The notes under the pieces are model-generated. The model had not been told where the DNA came from, did not search any database, and saw only the letters and a program-made list of their open reading frames with translations. Positions 3,115 through 61,894 of a DNA stretch of 64,000 nucleotides are shown here, piece after piece; the first letter of the stretch is position 1; each line of letters begins with the position of its first letter. A program made the translations under genes and the position numbers. The stretch lies in contig CAVZDP010000001.1 of the NCBI GenBank assembly GCA_963774075.1, forward strand, positions 108,572 through 172,571, read 5' to 3'. The stretch comes from an uncultured Solirubrobacterales bacterium. Its GTDB lineage: Bacteria; Actinomycetota; Thermoleophilia; Solirubrobacterales; JBBDJG01.

Positions 3115-10733
<7,619 letters not shown>

Positions 10734-22189: not shown

Positions 22190-22891
22190 ATGGCGGTGGA
22201 GCGCAAGAAGGACGACGAGCCAAAGACCGGCGGGCAGGCGGCCGGCTCGAAGGGCAAGGCCGGGGCCTCGGACCAGGCCGCGAAGGCCGAGGAGGGCGCA
22301 AAGGCCTCCAAGGCCTCGCCCAAGGCACGCCAGCCAAAGCCCGAGGCCAAGCAGGCTGGCGGCAAGGCGAAGTCCGAAGCCGCGACTCCCGCGCGCCCGC
22401 GAGCAGCACGCAAGCCTCGGGCGAGCGCCAAGAAAGCGCCCGCGACTGCCACGCAGCCATCAGGCGAGGGGGCCGAGCCGTCCAAGCGCGGAGCTCGTCC
22501 CCGCCGCCGCGCGACGCCCGCGGCCGAAACGCCACGGCGCGCTCCCGAGAGGCCGGTCGTGCGAGCGCAGGCCAAGTACGTCCGCTCCTCCGCGCGCAAG
22601 GCGAGGCTCGTAATCGAGCACATCCGCGGCAAGTCCGTCGTCGAGGCCCAAGCGGTGTTGCGCCACACGCCGCGTGCGGTTGCCCGCGACGTCGAGAAGC
22701 TGCTGAAGTCGGCGATCGCCAACGCCGAGAACAATCACGAGCTGGTGGGCGACGACCTCCGGGTCAAGGAGGTCTACGCAGACGAGGGCCCGACCTTGAA
22801 GCGCTTTCGCCCGCGCGCTCAGGGGCGCGCCACGCGCATCCGGAAGCGCACCAGCCATCTGACTGTAACCCTCACCCCGAAGGAGGACTAG
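22190..22891 (+). CDS. rplV: 50S ribosomal protein L22 with ~115-aa basic Ala/Lys/Pro-rich N-terminal extension
   Basis: ATG after AGGAGG. The C-terminal ~115 aa are canonical L22 (..[27 protein letters not shown]...P....V.KLL.SA.ANAE.N..). The N-terminus is [39 protein letters not shown]... Confidence 0.93.
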
Positions 22892-23053
22892 TGCCCCATC
22901 TCGGAGATCACACCCGTTCTGGCTCGCTGCAATCCTTCGCGGCTGCTGCGTCCTCGGTCGCTCAAATAGTGCATGACTATTCGGGCTCCCTGCGTCCTTG
23001 CCCCGCTCGGCTTTCGCGGCCAGAAGCGGGCGTGACCCCCGGGATGGGGCACT
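22890..23053 (+). repeat. 164-bp intergenic element with 26-bp imperfect terminal inverted repeats (MITE-like / long-range stem), family member A
   Basis: Left arm AGTGCCCCATCTCGGAGATCACACCC (22890-22915) matches the reverse complement of the right arm (23028-23053) at 22 of 26 positions. The internal core GCGTCCTCGGTCGC..hairpin..CGGGCTCCCTGCGTCCTTGCC is shared with 31668-31719. Confidence 0.65.
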
Positions 23054-23054
23054 G

Positions 23055-23786
23055 ATGGGCCAAAAGGTGCACCCCGAGGGACTTCGCGTCGGCTACATCC
23101 ATGACTGGAAGTCCAACTGGTTCAACGAGCGGGACTTCGCCGACTACCTGCACGAGGATCTCGAGATCCGCAAGCACATCGAGAACAAGCTCAGCCACGC
23201 CGGACTGTCCTCGATCACGATCCGCAAGGACAAGAACGAGGTGACGGTGGACATCCACACCGCTCGCCCGGGGATCGTGATCGGCAAGTCGGGCGCCGAA
23301 GTGGACGCGCTGCGCCGCGAGCTGCACAAGATGACCAGCAAGCAGGTGCGCGTGAACATCCTCGAGGTGAAGCGCCCGGAGCTCGACGCCAAGCTCGTCG
23401 CTCAGTCGATCGCCGAGCAGCTCCAGAACCGCGTCGCCTTCCGGCGCGCGATGAAGCGCGCGATCACGTCGGCGATGCGCTCCGGCGCGGTCGGCGTGAG
23501 GGTGCAGGTCTCCGGCCGGCTCGGCGGCTCGGAGATGGCCCGCACGGAGTTCTATTCCGAAGGGCGGGTCCCGCTGCACACGCTGCGTGCGGACATCGAC
23601 TACGGCCTGCACGAGGCGCGCACGACATTTGGGCGCATTGGCGTCAAGTGCTGGATCAACAAGGGCGAGGTCATGCCCGTCGGCTACGGGCGCCAAGACG
23701 GCGAGGCAGTTCCGCCGCCGCCACCACAGCGCCCACAGCGCCCGCAGGGCGACCGTGGCGGCCGCCGGGGGCAGAGGGGTAGGTAG
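23055..23786 (+). CDS. rpsC: 30S ribosomal protein S3 (Pro/Arg/Gly-rich C-terminal tail)
   Basis: ATG at 23055 gives [23 protein letters not shown]... The track start at 22998 lies inside the repeat element. Confidence 0.96.
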
Positions 23787-24494: not shown

Positions 24495-25202
24495 ATGCAG
24501 GACGAAGAGAAGCAAGAGCAGCCCGAAGAGCAGCAGCCCGCAGCCGACGAGGCCGCGCCGGAAGCCCCGGCGGCGGAGGAGGCTGCGGTGGAACAGCCCG
24601 CCGGCGAAGAGCCCGCGGCAGAGGAGTCTGCGGCGGAAGAGCCCGCGGCAGAGGAGCCTGCGGCAGAGGAGCCTGCGGCAGAGGAGCCTGCGGCAGAGGC
24701 TCCCGCCAAGCCCCCCGCTGCAGCTCCCGCCGAGGACGAGGCGGAGCCGCTCACGCCCAAGCAGCAGCGCAAGCTCGCCCGGTCCCGCGCGAATGGAACC
24801 GCTGCGCCGACGCGCTCGGCGGACGAGCGCGCCCGCGAGCGCTCCGAGCGGCGCACCTCCAAGGCCGCGGGACGCACCCGCTGGCGGCGCAAGCAACGCG
24901 AGCGCAGCCACGCCGAGCCGTCCCAGCCTCGTCCACAGAAGGAGCCTGCGGCCAAGGGCGCGCCCAAGGTCAGGCGCGGAGTGGTCGTCTCCAGCAAGCC
25001 CGACAAAACCATCACGGTCCGGACCGACGCCGTTCGCCCGCATCCGCGCTACGGCAAGGTCATCCGAAACACCAACACGCTTCATGCCCACGACGAGAAG
25101 AACCAGGCAAACGAGGGCGACGTGGTGCGGGTCGTCGAGACGCGGCCGCTCTCACGTACCAAGCGCTGGCTGCTGCTCGAGATCGTGGAGAGAGCCCGGT
25201 GA
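24495..25202 (+). CDS. rpsQ: 30S ribosomal protein S17 with ~150-aa N-terminal extension (acidic PAAEE repeats then basic segment)
   Basis: The C-terminal ~85 aa are canonical S17 (..[19 protein letters not shown]...HP.YGK.I....TLHAHDE.N.A.EGD.V...ETRPLS.TKRW.L). One uninterrupted 235-aa ORF, ATG after GGAGAG. Confidence 0.9.
24600..24704 (+). repeat. Seven tandem 15-bp coding repeats (GCGGCAGAGGAGCCT-like) inside rpsQ
   Basis: Units start at 24600, 24615, 24630, 24645, 24660, 24675 and 24690. Three central units are identical. Each encodes an (A/P)AEE(P/S) pentapeptide. Confidence 0.85.
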
Positions 25203-25905: not shown

Positions 25906-26708
25906 TGGCAGCGCGTCTCAAGGACAGGTATCAGAAGGAAATACGGCCGCAGCTGTTCGAGCGGTTCCGCTACAAGAGCCCGATGCAGATACCGCGGGTG
26001 GAGAAGATCACGCTCAACATGGGTGTGGGAGAGGCAAAGCTAAATACCGCGATGCTCGATGCCGCGAGCGAGCAGCTCGCCACGATCTCGGGCCAGCGCC
26101 CGCAGGTGCGCCGGGCGCGCAAGTCGATCGCCAACTTCAAGCTGCGCGAGGGCATGCCGGTCGGCGTGAGGGTGACGCTGCGAGGAGAGCGGATGTACGA
26201 GATGCTCGATCGCCTCCAGTCGATCGCCATCCCGCGGATTCGCGACTTTCGCGGCCTCAGCCCACGCTCCTTCGACGGGCGCGGCAACTACTCGCTCGGC
26301 ATTCGCGAGCAAATCATCTTCCCGGAGGTCGACTACGACTCGATCGACCAGGTGCGAGGCCTCGACGTCGCGATCACAACGTCCGCCAAGACCGACGAGG
26401 AGGCCTTCGAGCTGCTGCAATTGCTCGGCATGCCCTTCCGGGCCGAGGGATCGGAGCGCCGCGCCGGCACCGCGACGGAGGAGCCTGAGGCCGAGGATAC
26501 TGAGGAGCCGCCCGCAGCCGAGGAGCCCGTGGTGGAGGAGCCGCCGGCCGAGGAGCCCACCGCCGAAGAGCCGCCGGCAGAAGAGCCGCCGGCAGAAGAG
26601 CAGCCGGCCGAAGAGCCAGCCGCCGAGGCAGCAGACGAGAAGCCAGCGGCCGAGGCCGATTCCACACCAGACGAAACCGAAGAGGAAGGACAGGAGGAGC
26701 AGAGCTGA
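25905..26708 (+). CDS. rplE: 50S ribosomal protein L5 with ~85-aa acidic C-terminal extension
   Basis: ATG at 25905 overlaps the rplX stop (GTG at 25902 is an alternative). Canonical L5 runs to ~aa 180 (..[23 protein letters not shown]..). The tail is [42 protein letters not shown]... Confidence 0.94.
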
Positions 26709-28294: not shown

Positions 28295-28900
28295 ATGGCA
28301 CGCAGAGATTCGATCAACCCGCAGGGTCTCGACCTCCAGGAGCGCGTGGTCACGATCAACCGTGTCGCCAAGGTCGTCAAGGGTGGGCGTCGCTTCTCGT
28401 TTACGGCGCTGGTCGTTGTCGGCGATGAGGATCGGCTCGTCGGAATCGGCTACGGCAAGGCGAACGAGGTTCCGCTCGCCATCCAGAAAGCTGTCGAGCG
28501 CGCCAAGAAGAGCCTGTTCCGCGCGCCGAAGCACGGGACGACGATCACGCATCAGGTCCTTGGCCGCTACGGCTCCGCCAAGGTGCTCCTCAAGCCCGCG
28601 TCCGAGGGTACCGGCGTCATCGCCGGAGGGCCCGTGCGCGCCGTGCTCGAGTTGGCGGGCATTCGCGACGTGCTCTCCAAGAGCCTCGGCAGCCAGAACC
28701 CGATCAACCTGGTGAAGGCGACGATGGCCGGGCTGCAGTCACTCAAGCGGCCCGAGCGCGTGGCGGAGCTACGAGGCAAGAGCATCTCGCACGTGCTGGG
28801 GATCGAGCGCGGCGAGGAGGCTGCGGAGGACACCGGCGAGGCGGAGGCGGCAGCCCCTGAGCCGCCGGAGCCTGCTCCGATCGGCGCACAGGAGGCCTAG
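28295..28900 (+). CDS. rpsE: 30S ribosomal protein S5 with acidic C-terminal tail
   Basis: 201 aa, ..[39 protein letters not shown].. Confidence 0.96.
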
Positions 28901-28932
28901 TGGCCCTTCCCGGAACCGAGAAGGACCACTAG
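28897..28932 (+). other. Stop/start junction hairpin (CTAGTGGCCC ... GGACCACTAG) between rpsE and rpmD
   Basis: Arms 28897-28906 and 28923-32 pair at 9 of 10 positions. The rpsE TAG (28898-28900) lies in the left arm. CGAGAAGGAC (28917-28926) spans the loop and right arm. The rpmD GTG lies 3 nt after the right arm. Confidence 0.6.
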
Positions 28933-28934
28933 CA

Positions 28935-29141
28935 GTGGCGGCCGAGAGCGTCCGCATCACCCAGCGAAAGAGCGCCAACGGGACGAACCCCGCCCAGCGC
29001 GAGACCCTTCGCTCGCTCGGCCTCGGCCGCATCGGCCGCACGGTCGAGCGCCCGGACAGTCCCCAGCTTCGGGGAATGATCCGCGTGGTCGAGCATCTGG
29101 TGGACGTCGATGCGAACTCCGCCGGAGGCAAGCGTGGCTGA
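28935..29141 (+). CDS. rpmD: 50S ribosomal protein L30
   Basis: GTG start, 68 aa, ..VRITQRKS.....P.QR.TLRSLGL.RIG..V......P...GMI..V.HLV. Confidence 0.92.
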   Translation: MAAESVRITQRKSANGTNPAQRETLRSLGLGRIGRTVERPDSPQLRGMIRVVEHLVDVDANSAGGKRG

Positions 29142-30937: not shown

Positions 30938-31612
30938 ATGCCGGAGTTGAATCTCGTCCTGCTCGGCCCGCCAGGCGCAGGCAAGGGCACTCAGGCGAGG
31001 CGCCTCGTGGACGACTTCGGCCTGCCCTATATCGCGACCGGGGACATGCTGCGGGAAGAGGTGCGCCAGGAGACCGAGCTCGGCGGCAAGGCAAAGGCGT
31101 ACATGGAGCGGGGCGACCTCGTCCCCGACGATCTCATCATCGAGATGATCATGCGGCGGCTCGCGCAGCCGGACACGGCGAACGGCTTCATCCTGGACGG
31201 GTTTCCGCGCACTCAGGGACAGGCCGAGGCGCTGGACGAGGCGCTCGAGAGGTTGGGCCGCTCACTGACGGCGGCCGTGCTCGTCGACGTGAGCGACGAC
31301 GAGGTCACGCGCCGCCTCTCCGGGCGCCGCGTGTGCGTAAAGAACCAGCACAACTTCCACGTCGACTTCGACCCTCCCAAGCGACGTGACCGCTGCGACC
31401 TGGACGGCAGCCGGCTGGTCATCCGCGACGACGACCGCCCGGAGCTCGTACGGCACCGGCTCGAGGAGTACCACGCCAAGACCGAGCCTCTGATCGGGTA
31501 CTACGAGGACCGCAGCATCCTGCGCCGCATCGACGGCACGCGCCCCGCGAGCGAGGTGAGCGACCAGGTCCGCGCCACCCTCGCCGCGGCCCGCCTGGAG
31601 GGACAGGTCTAG
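30938..31612 (+). CDS. adk: Adenylate kinase
   Basis: ATG at 30938; MPELNLVLLGPPGAGKGTQA..L......IATGDMLR..; ..ILDGFPRT..QAEAL. Confidence 0.96.
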   Translation: MPELNLVLLGPPGAGKGTQARRLVDDFGLPYIATGDMLREEVRQETELGGKAKAYMERGDLVPDDLIIEMIMRRLAQPDTANGFILDGFPRTQGQAEALDEALERLGRSLTAAVLVDVSDDEVTRRLSGRRVCVKNQHNFHVDFDPPKRRDRCDLDGSRLVIRDDDRPELVRHRLEEYHAKTEPLIGYYEDRSILRRIDGTRPASEVSDQVRATLAAARLEGQV

Positions 31613-31774
31613 TGGCCTGTCCCATGACGTTCGACCTGAAATGGCGGCTTCGGAGCGCCGCCATGCGGCGTCCTCGGTCGCCCGATAGCGCTGCTATCGG
31701 GGCTCCCTGCGTCCTTGCCTGGCGCCGTCCGAACTTCGCCATTTCCTGGCCAACGTTACGAGACAGACCACTAG
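31609..31774 (+). repeat. 166-bp intergenic element with 21-bp imperfect terminal inverted repeats (MITE-like / long-range stem), family member B
   Basis: CTAGTGGCCTGTCCCATGACG (31609-31629) matches the reverse complement of 31754-31774 at 17 of 21 positions. It contains the core GCGTCCTCGGTCGC, a 9-bp hairpin (CCCGATAGC gct GCTATCGGG), and GGCTCCCTGCGTCCTTGCC. Confidence 0.65.
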
Positions 31775-31805
31775 TGGTCCACCCGTTTTGCGAGAAGGAC
31801 CGTCA

Positions 31806-32579
31806 GTGATCATCCGCAAGACGCCGGAGGAGATCGAGGCGATCGCCGCCGCCGGCGAGGTCGTCGCGCGCTGCCTCACGATGCTGAGTGCGAGCGCCCG
31901 CGCCGGCGCCACGACAGCGGAGCTCGACCGCGCCGCCGAGAAGTTCATCCGCAGCCAGGGGGGCGAGCCGGCGTTCAAGGGCTATCGCGGCTTTCCGGCC
32001 TCGATCTGTACCTCGCCCAACTCGATGGTTGTGCACGGCATCCCGGGGCCCTACACGCTCGAACGTGGAGACATCCTCTCGGTCGACGTCGGCGTGGAGC
32101 TCGACGGCTGGATCGCCGACGCGGCCCTCACGGTGGCCGTGCGCCCCCTCAGCCCCGTGGCGACCAAGCTGCTGCGGGCCACCCGCCAGGCGCTGGAGGC
32201 CGGCGTCGAGCACTGCCGCCCGGGACAGCGGCTCGGCGATGTCTCGAGCGCCGTACAGGAGCGCGTGGAGCAGGACGGCTTTTCGGTCATCCGCTCGCTC
32301 GTCGGCCACGGCATCGGGCGCCAGATGCACGAAGACCCCCAGATCCCCAATTTCGGGGAGCCCGGCAAGGGCCCCCTGATCGAGGAGGGGATGGTCTTCT
32401 GCATCGAGCCGATGGTCTGCGTCGGCGGCCACAGCGTCCGGATGGGCGATGACAACTGGGCTATCTACTCAGAGGACGGCTCTCTGACGGCCCATTTCGA
32501 GCACACCGTGGCGGTCACCGCGGACGGCCCCCGAGTGCTCACCCCATGGCACCTGAAGGCCGAGAAGGCCGCCGCCTGA
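31806..32579 (+). CDS. map: Methionine aminopeptidase type I
   Basis: GTG at 31806, 5 nt after CGAGAAGGAC, gives (M)IIRKTPEEIEAIAAAGEVVA..; ..VHGIPG...L..GDI...D.G....G...D.A.T; ..HGIG...HE.P. Confidence 0.95.
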   Translation: MIIRKTPEEIEAIAAAGEVVARCLTMLSASARAGATTAELDRAAEKFIRSQGGEPAFKGYRGFPASICTSPNSMVVHGIPGPYTLERGDILSVDVGVELDGWIADAALTVAVRPLSPVATKLLRATRQALEAGVEHCRPGQRLGDVSSAVQERVEQDGFSVIRSLVGHGIGRQMHEDPQIPNFGEPGKGPLIEEGMVFCIEPMVCVGGHSVRMGDDNWAIYSEDGSLTAHFEHTVAVTADGPRVLTPWHLKAEKAAA

Positions 32580-35811: not shown

Positions 35812-36054
35812 GAGAGGCCGCGTAGGCGCCGAAGGCGCCGCAGCGGACTCACGAGACTTTAGGTGTCCGGCGAAGCCGGCTAGATATTCCTTGAGAGGCC
35901 GCGTAGGCGCCGAAGGCGCCGCAGCGGACTCACGAGACTTTAGGTGTCCGGCGAAGCCGGCTAGATATTCCTTGAGAGGCCGCGTAGGCGCCGAAGGCGC
36001 CGCAGCGGACTCACGAGACTTTAGGTGTCCGGCGAAGCCGGCTAGATATTCCTC
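35812..36054 (+). repeat. Array of three head-to-tail 81-bp GTAG-hairpin units
   Basis: Units start at 35812, 35893 and 35974 and are essentially identical, with no spacers. The array sits between the rplQ stop (35810) and the truA start (36076). Confidence 0.95.
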
Positions 36055-47119: not shown

Positions 47120-47193
47120 CGGGGCGTGGCGCAGTCTGGTAGCGCGCACCGTTCGGGTCGGTGAGGTCCCCGGTTCAAATCCGGGCGCCCCGA
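47120..47193 (+). tRNA. tRNA-Pro (anticodon CGG)
   Basis: Manual cloverleaf: acceptor CGGGGCG/CGCCCCG, D arm GCGC-AGTCTGGTA-GCGC, anticodon arm CACCG-TTCGGGT-CGGTG, variable AGGTC, T arm CCCGG-TTCAAAT-CCGGG, discriminator A. CCA is not encoded. Confidence 0.93.
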
Positions 47194-47199
47194 TATATG

Positions 47200-47472
47200 T
47201 CAGAGGCGGCGTAGCCGGCAGAGCCGGCGCAGCCGACTCACATGACTGAGGTGCCCGGCGTCAGCCGGCTGGATATTCAGTCAGAGGCGGCGTAGCCGGC
47301 AGAGCCGGCGCAGCCGACTCACATGACTGAGGTGCCCGGCGTCAGCCGGCTGGATATTCAGTCAGAGGCGGCGTAGCCGGCAGAGCCGGCGCAGCCGACT
47401 CACATGACTGAGGTGCCCGGCGTCAGCCGGCTGGATATTCAGTCAGAGGCGGCGTAGCTGGCTAGATATTCG
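47200..47472 (+). repeat. Array of three full 81-bp GTAG-hairpin units plus one internally deleted unit
   Basis: Units start at 47200, 47281 and 47362. The fourth, at 47443, keeps the first 16 nt fused to the tail TGGCTAGATATTCGG. The array starts 7 nt after tRNA-Pro. Confidence 0.95.
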
Positions 47473-61636: not shown

Positions 61637-61816
61637 ATGGTCGAAGCGACCGTCCAGAGGTACATATGCACGTCCTGCGGGTTCATCTACGACCCGGCCG
61701 AGGGCGACCCCGACGGCGGCATCCCGCCTGGCACGGCGTTCGAGGAGATCCCCGCCGACTGGTTCTGCCCGGTCTGCGGCGCGCGCAAGAGGGATTTTGA
61801 GGTATATGAGGACTAG
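61637..61816 (+). CDS. Rubredoxin
   Basis: 59 aa, below the track cutoff. Own translation: [59 protein letters not shown] (CxxC...CPxCG). Confidence 0.93.
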
Positions 61817-61894
61817 AGACCGCGTAGCCGCCGAAGGCGGCGCAGCGGGCTCACAGGACTTTAGGTGTCCGGCGAAGCCGGCTCGATATTCCGC
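61815..61894 (+). repeat. Single copy of the 81-nt GTAG-hairpin element
   Basis: AGAGA-CCGC-GTAG-CCGCC-gaa-GGCGGC-GCA-GCGG-GCTCACAGGACTTTAGGTGT-CCGGC-gaa-GCCGG-CTCGATATTCCG. It begins inside the rubredoxin TAG. Confidence 0.9.

Follow-up and report, generated by a model that had tools for sequence, protein, structure and literature searches.

Insertion sequences of the IS630 kind target CTAG and duplicate TA, integron attC sites carry the boxes R''/L''-L'/R' (RYYYAAC...GTTRRRY), and mycobacterial interspersed repetitive units (MIRUs) are tandem repeats of 46-101 bp. MIRUs keep the translation of the next gene coupled by means of a short open reading frame (ORF) that begins across the stop of the gene before it and ends across the start of the gene after it (PMC12548453). 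According to another study, repetitive extragenic palindromes (REPs) tagged with CGTC have stems of 8-9 bp with A/T at stem positions 1-2, loops of 4-5 nt, a tag that adjoins the stem and a CCA tail, and the hosts listed there for tagged REPs include no Actinobacteria (PMC3733652). Here we describe a palindromic repeat that lies between adk and map in the spc ribosomal-protein operon of an uncultured Solirubrobacterales bacterium (GCA_963774075.1, contig CAVZDP010000001.1, positions 108,572 to 172,571, forward strand). The whole stretch analysed, 64,000 nt long, is called the window. Our results indicate, with a probability of about 0.75, that the repeat at adk|map, hereafter copy B, is a non-autonomous palindromic mobile repeat inserted at this junction, and that its family is widespread in Thermoleophilia. 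Copy B, its parts and a sister copy are laid out in the window as follows.

31609..31774, + strand: whole element copy B, long form, 166 nt (supported by inverted-repeat rank, covariance-model match and identity to locus L068).
31609..31666, + strand: left arm, which starts CTAGTGG and holds the adk TAG (31610-31612) and the overlapping GTG (31612-31614).
31660..31666, + strand: 5' half of stem P1 (GCCATGC), pairing with 31717-31723 (GCCTGGC) with the family-typical U.C mismatch (from register and covariation).
31668..31679, + strand: invariant 5' core box GCGTCCTCGGTC.
31680..31703, + strand: central variable hairpin P2 (GCCCGATAGC-gct-GCTATCGGGGC).
31703..31717, + strand: invariant 3' core box CTCCCTGCGTCC, then TTG.
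31717..31774, + strand: right arm, which ends CCACTAG.
22889..23055, + strand: sister copy A between rplV and rpsC, with the same core, other arms and a 54-codon frame from TAGTG to TGATG.

The coordinates and sequences that an earlier note, made from the letters alone, had given for copy B all agree with the window. The adk TAG lies within CTAGTGGCCTGTCCCATGACG (31609-31629), and 17 of the 21 positions of this segment pair with CGTTACGAGACAGACCACTAG (31754-31774), not counting one G.U; CTAGTGG is present at both 31609 and 31771; and the core is common to the rplV|rpsC copy, with exact GCGTCCTCGGTCGC and GGCTCCCTGCGTCCTTGCC at both sites. The arms are longer than that note had them, 58 nt each and 71% complementary, and copy B is the top-ranked inverted repeat by length in the window, copy A being the third. 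The complementarity is significant by the shuffled-sequence control, given that the anchored arm-alignment score is 53 for copy B and 42 for copy A, whereas 2000 right-arm shuffles gave no score above 24, which was also the maximum at 2000 random window positions. As RNA, copy B folds at -100.2 kcal/mol in the sense direction (z -5.1) and at -117.6 kcal/mol in the antisense direction (z -7.9). Both flanking genes were verified by Pfam (ADK, 2e-53, for adk; Peptidase_M24, 8.6e-50, for map).

Within the window, GCGTCCTCGGTCGC has exact matches at 22948 and 31668 only (with 1-2 mismatches allowed there are nine matches, not above chance), and GGCTCCCTGCGTCCTTGCC at 22984 and 31701 only, where 0.06 are expected; copies A and B thus have an exact 14-nt and an exact 20-nt core stretch in common. 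A covariance model of the family finds exactly two copies in the window, at 72.4 bits (the centre of copy B) and 70 bits, the next match reaching 20 bits. This weak match, at 4210-4281 on the - strand (E = 0.008), lies about 27 kb upstream of copy B, includes GCGTCCTCGGTCGT, and is probably due to chance.

The adk|map spacer is an insertion in this lineage, which landed on the adk stop codon, because in the closest relatives (L121, L125 and L122, with Map identities of 86, 80 and 78%) adk and map overlap by 4 nt as GTGA. Altogether 80 metagenome contigs encoding Map relatives were retrieved, and the junction was inspected in 30; the other inspected junctions have spacers of 6-55 nt without the core, and the window spacer measures 193 nt. 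The empty site sought in relatives was therefore found, which favours insertion over the conserved vertical spacer that the earlier note had named as a possible refutation. A further relative, L129 (Map identity 74%), has a different, decayed short-form copy at adk|map, and copies also stand elsewhere in the ribosomal operon, at secY|adk (L123 and L128) and at rpmJ|rpsM (L002), indicating that the junctions of this operon took up such elements several times in independent events, each time in the sense orientation.

Copy B has its best match in another species and at an unrelated locus, L068, downstream of an acyl-CoA dehydrogenase gene. The two are identical at 135 of 168 positions (80%) over the full length, arms included; two adjacent positions are changed on both arms with pairing kept, and two C.A mismatches are conserved. 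Since the full-length match joins unrelated loci, the moving unit is the long unit with its arms, and this unit has moved between unrelated loci. Taken together with the empty sites and the further copies described below, these results bear out the proposal that copy B, as the second copy in the window, belongs to a family of repeats with inverted-repeat arms and came to its site by insertion.

The exact 24-nt core pattern, GCGTCCTCGGTC-N13-43-CTCCCTGCGTCC, occurs at no fewer than 120 loci (at least) in a scan of species-representative genomes. Among the matches listed, all named loci belong to Thermoleophilia lineages (Solirubrobacterales, Gaiellales, Thermoleophilaceae, Miltoncostaeaceae and Conexibacter) or to unclassified Actinomycetota metagenome-assembled genomes. 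A fuzzy core scan of 948 kb added 14 copies with 1-4 mismatches, against 2 in the reversed-sequence control, and gave a background density of roughly one copy per 70 kb. Most of the added copies have a single change, commonly GCGTCCTCAGTC, and there are so few of them that the core must be highly conserved even where a match was not required. The covariance model gave 114 matches in 99 of the at least 120 loci plus the window. Rfam returned only a tRNA for the whole window at the gathering threshold, and for 31560-31850, searched on both strands at an E-value threshold, the best hit was a chance miRNA match (E = 8.3). Plasmids and phages gave no family match, and 2.9 million viral contigs gave one copy with an exact core (L201 601-649, IMG/VR contig IMGVR_UViG_3300026300_000009), and nothing thus points to a phage or a plasmid as vector. 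Literature searches gave only unrelated primer matches for the core sequences, no hits on inverted-repeat transposons of this kind in Thermoleophilia and, with a wider scope, only papers on repeats in general; the family is apparently undescribed.

The coding strands of the flanks, called from positional G+C, place the left flank in the same orientation as the element in 78 copies and opposed to it in 17. Convergent genes enclose 34 copies and divergent genes 4, and in tandem-gene contexts 30 copies are sense and 9 antisense. Head-to-tail pairs of copies were also seen, at L029 3517-3715 and at L107 ~3133-3258, the second copy starting within a few nt of where the first ends.

Every copy has a near-invariant centre, GCGTCCTCGGTC, a variable hairpin and CTCCCTGCGTCCTTG, closed by a covarying 7-bp stem with outer arms beyond it. 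In RNA letters the boxes read GCGUCCUCGGUC on the 5' side and CUCCCUGCGUCC, then UUG, on the 3' side, and the central hairpin P2 comes in two main sequence types. Alignments and a register scan place stem P1 in the 7 bp adjoining the core, left positions -2 to -8 pairing with right positions +3 to +9. A plain MAFFT alignment misaligned the variable arms, which left RNAalifold with a poor consensus, and the structure was read instead from a register analysis anchored on the core and from an alignment by covariance model. In the latter, with 114 copies, P1 is 84% paired and 6 of its 7 pairs show changes on both sides; its covariation score is 0.382 against 0.118 in shuffled alignments (0/500 shuffles reach it) and at most 0.103 in slid registers. 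At the middle positions each of the four Watson-Crick pairs is seen, and pyrimidine-pyrimidine mismatches are frequent. The outer arms are specific to each copy (median own-arm score 34 vs 5 for arms swapped between copies), with boundaries that are imprecise by a few nt.

Two size classes can be told apart, short forms with arms of ~26-30 nt and long forms with arms of ~56-61 nt, and both window copies are long. The upstream stop keeps a constant spacing from the core, ~23 nt in the short and ~56 nt in the long forms, which corresponds to the outer edge of the arm; it is TAG in 17 of 22 long forms and mostly TGA in the short ones. Long forms split into subfamilies with recognisable termini that start TA(G/A), those of the window type being TAGTGnnCCnnCCGG...CCGGnnGGnnCACTA. 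The subfamily at adk|map (~165 nt) has arms of ~58 nt, a TAGTG start and a CACTA end, and these termini are conserved at many loci. A TA stands at the left end of 28 and at the right end of 18 of the 43 long copies, where ~8% would be expected. Across the Thermoleophilia orders the centre is invariant, and the arms vary from one subfamily to another and are not the same in copies A and B. The earlier note had placed copy B in a family of terminal-inverted-repeat (TIR) elements; the inverted-repeat arms and the dispersed insertion uphold this, whereas the conservation of the centre rather than the termini is not that of a classic TIR element.

The edges of copy B were further compared with the adjoining sequence, where two small hairpins are relevant.

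31771..31808, + strand: 3' small hairpin, or junction module, CTAGTGGTCC-N10-CGAGAAGGACC-GTCA-GTG, which sequesters the map Shine-Dalgarno (SD) sequence and GTG (-16.4 kcal/mol).
28897..28932, + strand: mini-hairpin between rpsE and rpmD, CTAGTGGCCCTTCC..GAGAAGGACCACTAG, 34-36 nt, near-perfect, -21 kcal/mol, containing the rpsE stop.

It had been suggested that the CTAGTGG at both ends of copy B is a target duplication. This is not borne out, since no direct repeat of 6 nt or more is found family-wide at the element edges, where the longest shared word falls within the mismatched-pair null, and since TAGTG...CACTA is a conserved subfamily terminus at many loci. The second CTAGTGG (31771) is the start of the adjacent small hairpin unit. 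A short duplication of TA or CTAG is possible, and is not separable from the terminus because CTAG is palindromic and part of it. One short form, at L114 5344-5467, is flanked by the 7-nt direct repeat CGATGAG, which contains a host ATGA stop/start overlap; this is a single case without counterpart across the family, and the short form itself contains an inverted 17-nt copy of the upstream gene end.

The junction module had been described with a spacer of 16 nt, which is corrected here to N10, and as a duplicate of the rpsE|rpmD cassette, which holds only in part. The likeness to 28897-28937 holds at its two ends (9/10 at CTAGTGGnCC and 11/11 at CGAGAAGGACC) and fails in between (2/10). The segment 31775-31805 can be read equally well as what is left of an ancestral spacer between adk and map, SD included, to be compared with GAGAAGGGCGCC-GTG in L130. 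At L068, however, the element is likewise followed by a mini-hairpin, there with an 8-codon frame from TAGTG to TAGTG. The rpsE|rpmD mini-hairpin consists of the termini of the L068/copy B subfamily joined without the central module, and has a 10-codon frame from TAGTG to TAG that ends 2 nt ahead of the rpmD GTG; it could have arisen from a full element by deletion, or be a shell that no centre occupies. The idea that mini-hairpins form a widespread family was discarded, the one at rpsE|rpmD being the only one that qualifies in 1.19 Mb.

How an insertion on a stop codon within this operon is tolerated may be related to two features of the adk|map junction.

31597..31603, + strand: SD-like GGAGGGA within the final codons of adk, 8 nt ahead of GTG 31612.
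31612..31809, + strand: proposed relay ORF of 65 codons, from the GTG overlapping the adk TAG to the TGA overlapping the map GTG, with a peptide that is not conserved.

From the sequence of the junction, we propose, at somewhat less than even odds, that copy B is tolerated as it acts as a translational relay that keeps map translated. The GGAGGGA at the end of adk, together with the element GTG that overlaps the TAG, would start the 65-codon frame; ribosomes leaving adk, or initiating at GTG 31612, would translate on through the open frame across the hairpin as far as the TGA that overlaps the map GTG. On the way they would open up the structure, so freeing the map SD and start codon from the 3' hairpin, and would then initiate anew at map. 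The overlaps on which this proposal rests are TAGTG at 31610-31614 and the TGA at 31807-31809 within GTGA (31806-31809), and both the map SD (31792-31799) and its GTG start (31806-31808) lie inside the 3' small hairpin. In copy A the counterpart is AAGGAGGA, then TAGTG, 54 codons and TGATG. Including both window copies, 13 long copies have a frame that ends within a few nt of the next gene start, 10 of them between co-oriented genes, and 6 of the 13 have exactly 54 codons although their hairpins differ in length. A start codon that overlaps or abuts the upstream stop is found in 15 of 26 operon-internal copies vs 2 of 30 between convergent genes. None of these counts is independent, the copies being related to one another. 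The right terminus of the window subfamily brings a GGAGG to 5-8 nt ahead of the next start. No promoter or intrinsic-terminator consensus was found in the adk|map spacer.

Two observations weigh against the relay. In DNA of 68% G+C, one or two of the three frames are open across the elements in any context, and because open frames are so common by chance the relay ORF is weak evidence by itself. In addition, the frame of copy B misses the element's own terminal stop, and reaches the GTGA of map through the next 33 nt.

The stems of these elements involve the ends of the host genes that they follow. In copy B this is seen in an alternative pairing of the left arm.

31600..31623, + strand: local alternative hairpin, in which the adk 3' end GGGACAGGUC (31600-31609) pairs with GGCCUGUCCC of the left arm (31614-31623), -20.7 kcal/mol.

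The earlier note had pointed to such a local pairing with 7 bp; it is real and extends to 10 bp, with a UAGU loop that holds the adk TAG, and it is part of the minimum-free-energy fold of the sense strand. The arms of copy B differ from those of L068 at two positions per arm, and the changes complement the adk end, where CAGGTC is ancestral according to the relatives; the two changes matching this ancestral end produced the 10-bp local hairpin around the TAG. Short forms go further. Their arms are locus-specific and reach up to 17 nt into the upstream gene, at least two stop-codon bases are paired in 30 of 43 copies, and up to 17 nt of that gene, its last codons and stop, recur in the right arm as a perfect inverted copy. 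At the gyrB 3' ends (...VTNLDV*) of two Thermoleophilaceae species there are short-form elements at L018 2311-2433 and L024 5378-5500; the last gyrB codons and the stop recur in the L018 right arm as a perfect inverted copy of 16 nt, which is not so in the L024 ortholog, whose arms differ.

Perfect hairpins that embed the stop are near-absent from element-free gene ends (4 of 930), and the stems were therefore made with or after insertion; on the same count, pre-existing stop-codon hairpins were rejected as the main insertion targets. At one element-free gene end (L031 ~4150-4180) the stop lies in a 9-bp perfect hairpin, CACTGATGC-gcaagc-GCATCAGTG, where CACTGATG resembles the right terminus of long elements. 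Stems of this kind may arise by templated palindrome extension or by hairpin-primed integration.

Folding is also asymmetric between the strands. The complementary strand folds better in 82 of 99 copies, and among long forms in 42 of 43, by a mean of 20 kcal/mol. Antisense-oriented copies show the same in 9 of 9 cases, so the asymmetry is intrinsic to the family and not a local adaptation. With symmetric scoring, the sense strand of the outer arms has 265 A.C vs 86 G.T mismatches, and that of the inner shell has the reverse, 209 G.T vs 119 A.C. Such an asymmetry is predicted by a folded single-strand intermediate and not by double-stranded cut-and-paste. There is a weak indication here that the relevant folded form is the complementary (bottom) strand as a single-stranded intermediate, and a similarly weak one that the invariant centre is a recognition module for whatever mobilises or uses the element. 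Selection against strong mRNA hairpins would explain why copies mostly have the weaker-folding strand as sense.

Several results argue against a mobile repeat. The 1.19 Mb of related sequence, a limited sample rather than whole genomes, yielded neither an autonomous partner nor a transposase whose ends match; TIR pairs at spacings of 0.02-3 kb and solo matches to the TIR consensus were at chance level apart from the window mini-hairpin, and no solo TIR pair enclosed a gene. There is no target duplication of 6 nt or more across the family, no recent transposition event was seen, and it is the centre that is conserved and not the termini, unlike in known MITEs (miniature transposable elements with inverted repeats), the core being invariant across orders. 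Moreover, some sites in different species appear to be orthologs (two at the gyrB 3' end, three at a MoaD/ThiS-like C-terminus and three at a gene ending '...ITNRFGG'), and from species to species these recurrent sites carry different but complementary stems, which suggests old maintained copies or insertion hot spots. With its conserved centre, invariant core and apparently orthologous sites, the family is explained by host selection at least as well as by selfish spread.

The family, or at least its short forms, could accordingly be a host-selected structured RNA or a domesticated element, a cis device with sequence specificity at gene 3' ends and operon junctions (for instance for mRNA processing, stabilisation, termination or enforced translational coupling) that works with a conserved trans factor and is mostly inherited vertically. 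We regard this as possible, though on balance improbable. It would account for the invariance of the core across the Thermoleophilia orders, the covariation of P1 and P2, the conserved G.U pairs of the inner shell on the sense strand, the 78:17 bias towards the upstream gene with enrichment at 3' ends, the fixed distances from stop to core and the different but complementary stems at orthologous sites. It does not account for the absence of copy B from the orthologous junction in the closest relatives, for the unrelated genes that the element adjoins, for the 17 of 95 copies that are antisense to the upstream gene or for outer arms that fold far better on the non-transcribed strand, and neither strand matches an Rfam family.

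Equally open to doubt is an ordinary MITE of the DDE type (IS630/Tc1-mariner kind), moved by double-stranded cut-and-paste into TA or CTAG with duplication of TA, the hairpin being a by-product of the TIRs. The long forms, with ends TA(G/A)...(C/T)TA, the excess of terminal TA, the TAG stops upstream, the many copies flanked CTAG...CTAG and the subfamilies with a recognisable TIR consensus are all as this reading predicts. The short forms have no TA ends and have locus-specific arms, and throughout the family the termini vary around an invariant centre while compensatory double changes keep the arms paired. Neither the folding bias towards one strand nor the C.A mismatches conserved between copies are predicted by a double-stranded DNA mechanism, and no IS630-like partner was found in the 1.19 Mb of related loci.

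An unlikely alternative is a REP or REPIN-like element, a folded single strand mobilised by an HUH enzyme (REP-associated tyrosine transposase, RAYT, or IS200/IS605-type) or by another structure-specific enzyme. The whole element is indeed a hairpin whose pairing is kept by compensatory changes, one strand folds much better, and copies are extragenic, at 3' ends and between convergent genes. There are known REPs, tagged with CGTC, for which no dedicated transposase exists (PMC3733652), and the core has GCGTCC twice. Nevertheless, there is no GTAG tag, the geometry is unlike that of the CGTC REPs, and no RAYT gene adjoins the copies in the 8-kb pieces around them. The better-folding strand is usually the transcription template and, for co-directional genes, would be the leading-strand template, not the lagging-strand template that serves the IS200/IS605 type.

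Stems that match host gene ends and the one-strand bias, taken together, would suggest either single-strand mobilisation by an unknown enzyme or a host-adopted RNA device that clamps stop codons. A new kind of element, in which a class-wide invariant module makes its stem from the host gene 3' end and is mobilised as a single strand, is a speculative reading that we hold to be rather unlikely. A genuine 65-aa small protein encoded by the spacer, with one of 54 aa at rplV|rpsC as its counterpart, is very improbable despite the open frames with an SD and with starts and stops overlapping the flanking genes; it was rejected because copies A and B read the conserved nucleotides in different frames and no Pfam family matches either ORF, and in addition the frame shifts at the central hairpin between copy B and L068, and chance open frames are common in this DNA. 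Finally, a chance palindrome or an ordinary, vertically inherited intergenic spacer is virtually ruled out by the shuffle controls, the empty sites in relatives and the at least 120 homologous copies elsewhere.

A mobile palindromic repeat at adk|map remains the reading that we prefer, and it has implications for the Thermoleophilia, soil-abundant and barely cultured Actinomycetota in which this repeat family is apparently unannotated. Annotators would call its copies hypothetical small ORFs or unexplained long spacers in ribosomal-protein operons. If the relay is true, it would be a second independent case, after MIRUs, of mobile DNA that colonises stop/start overlaps and leaves coupling unbroken, here with a built-in hairpin masking the SD as well, an idea that is directly testable. 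The invariant centre, the asymmetric folding and the host-copied stems are unexplained by current MITE and REP models, and an enzyme of mobilisation or an RNA-binding factor not yet known could lie behind them. For Thermoleophilia the core offers a clean marker of 24 nt, and insertion polymorphisms might be of use in strain typing.

Other repeats were observed in the window. Perfect 81-nt tandem repeats occupy 35812-36053 (3.0 copies) and 47199-47462 (3.3 copies, directly after the tRNA at 47120-47193), and a single related unit lies at 61814-61893. The units of the two arrays are 68% alike, keep two small hairpins through compensatory changes and have no Rfam match; they appear to form another repeat family, unrelated to the first. 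The ribosomal-protein cluster also has, within its genes or close to them, 15-nt (5-codon) Glu/Pro/Ala-rich coding repeats (24513-24729, 26472-26658, 2381-2463 and 1244-1315), which would encode low-complexity acidic stretches.

Among known systems, copy B has several features of a MITE, namely TIRs, a length of 166 nt with no conserved coding, and dispersed copies with presence or absence between relatives; it departs from MITEs in that the termini are not the most conserved part and that no insertion sequence with shared termini was found in the 1.19 Mb. The Correia elements (CREE-NEMIS) of Neisseria and the ERIC/IRU repeats of enterobacteria are likewise 100-170 bp long and non-coding, with inverted-repeat arms and TA-associated ends (as in the long forms), and are dispersed intergenically, also within operons, where they are co-transcribed with their neighbours and have empty sites in relatives. 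They have no sequence relation to the present element, which differs from them in its invariant centre, variable arms and strand-asymmetric folding, in the locus-specific arms of its short forms and in having no known partner insertion sequence.

With REPs and REPINs the element has in common extragenic hairpins at 3' ends or between convergent genes, compensatory pairing and possibly a single-strand mechanism and, with the CGTC REPs, the lack of a known transposase (PMC3733652). It differs in that it has no GTAG, that its CGTC lies inside GCGTCC, 7 nt from the stem, that its stem and loop sizes do not fit, and that its conserved boxes stand in an internal loop around the central hairpin and not as an unpaired tag at the stem foot; it is also larger. 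Integron attC sites are similarly imperfect palindromes at ORF 3' ends, keeping structure while sequence varies, with the bottom strand as the functional fold. The present element has neither R'/R'' boxes, an integrase nor a cassette array, its conservation is central, and it sits in core housekeeping operons; copy B, with its termini TAGTG and CACTA in the spc operon, is thus not an attC site.

The palindromic elements of Rickettsia (RPEs) also survive in translated sequence by keeping a frame open, in their case in-frame inside protein genes, whereas the element described here lies between genes with a separate relay frame. MIRUs, found between operon genes with an ORF whose start and stop overlap the flanks, are matched in this respect by copies A and B and 11 other operon-internal long copies; they differ in being tandem units of unrelated sequence from Mycobacterium, a different class, and not a single 166-nt hairpin. 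Taken together, the element resembles a transcribed palindromic MITE to which a MIRU-like coupled mini-ORF and a REPIN-like upkeep of the hairpin would have been added, and neither its sequence nor the features that define these groups make it a member of any of them.

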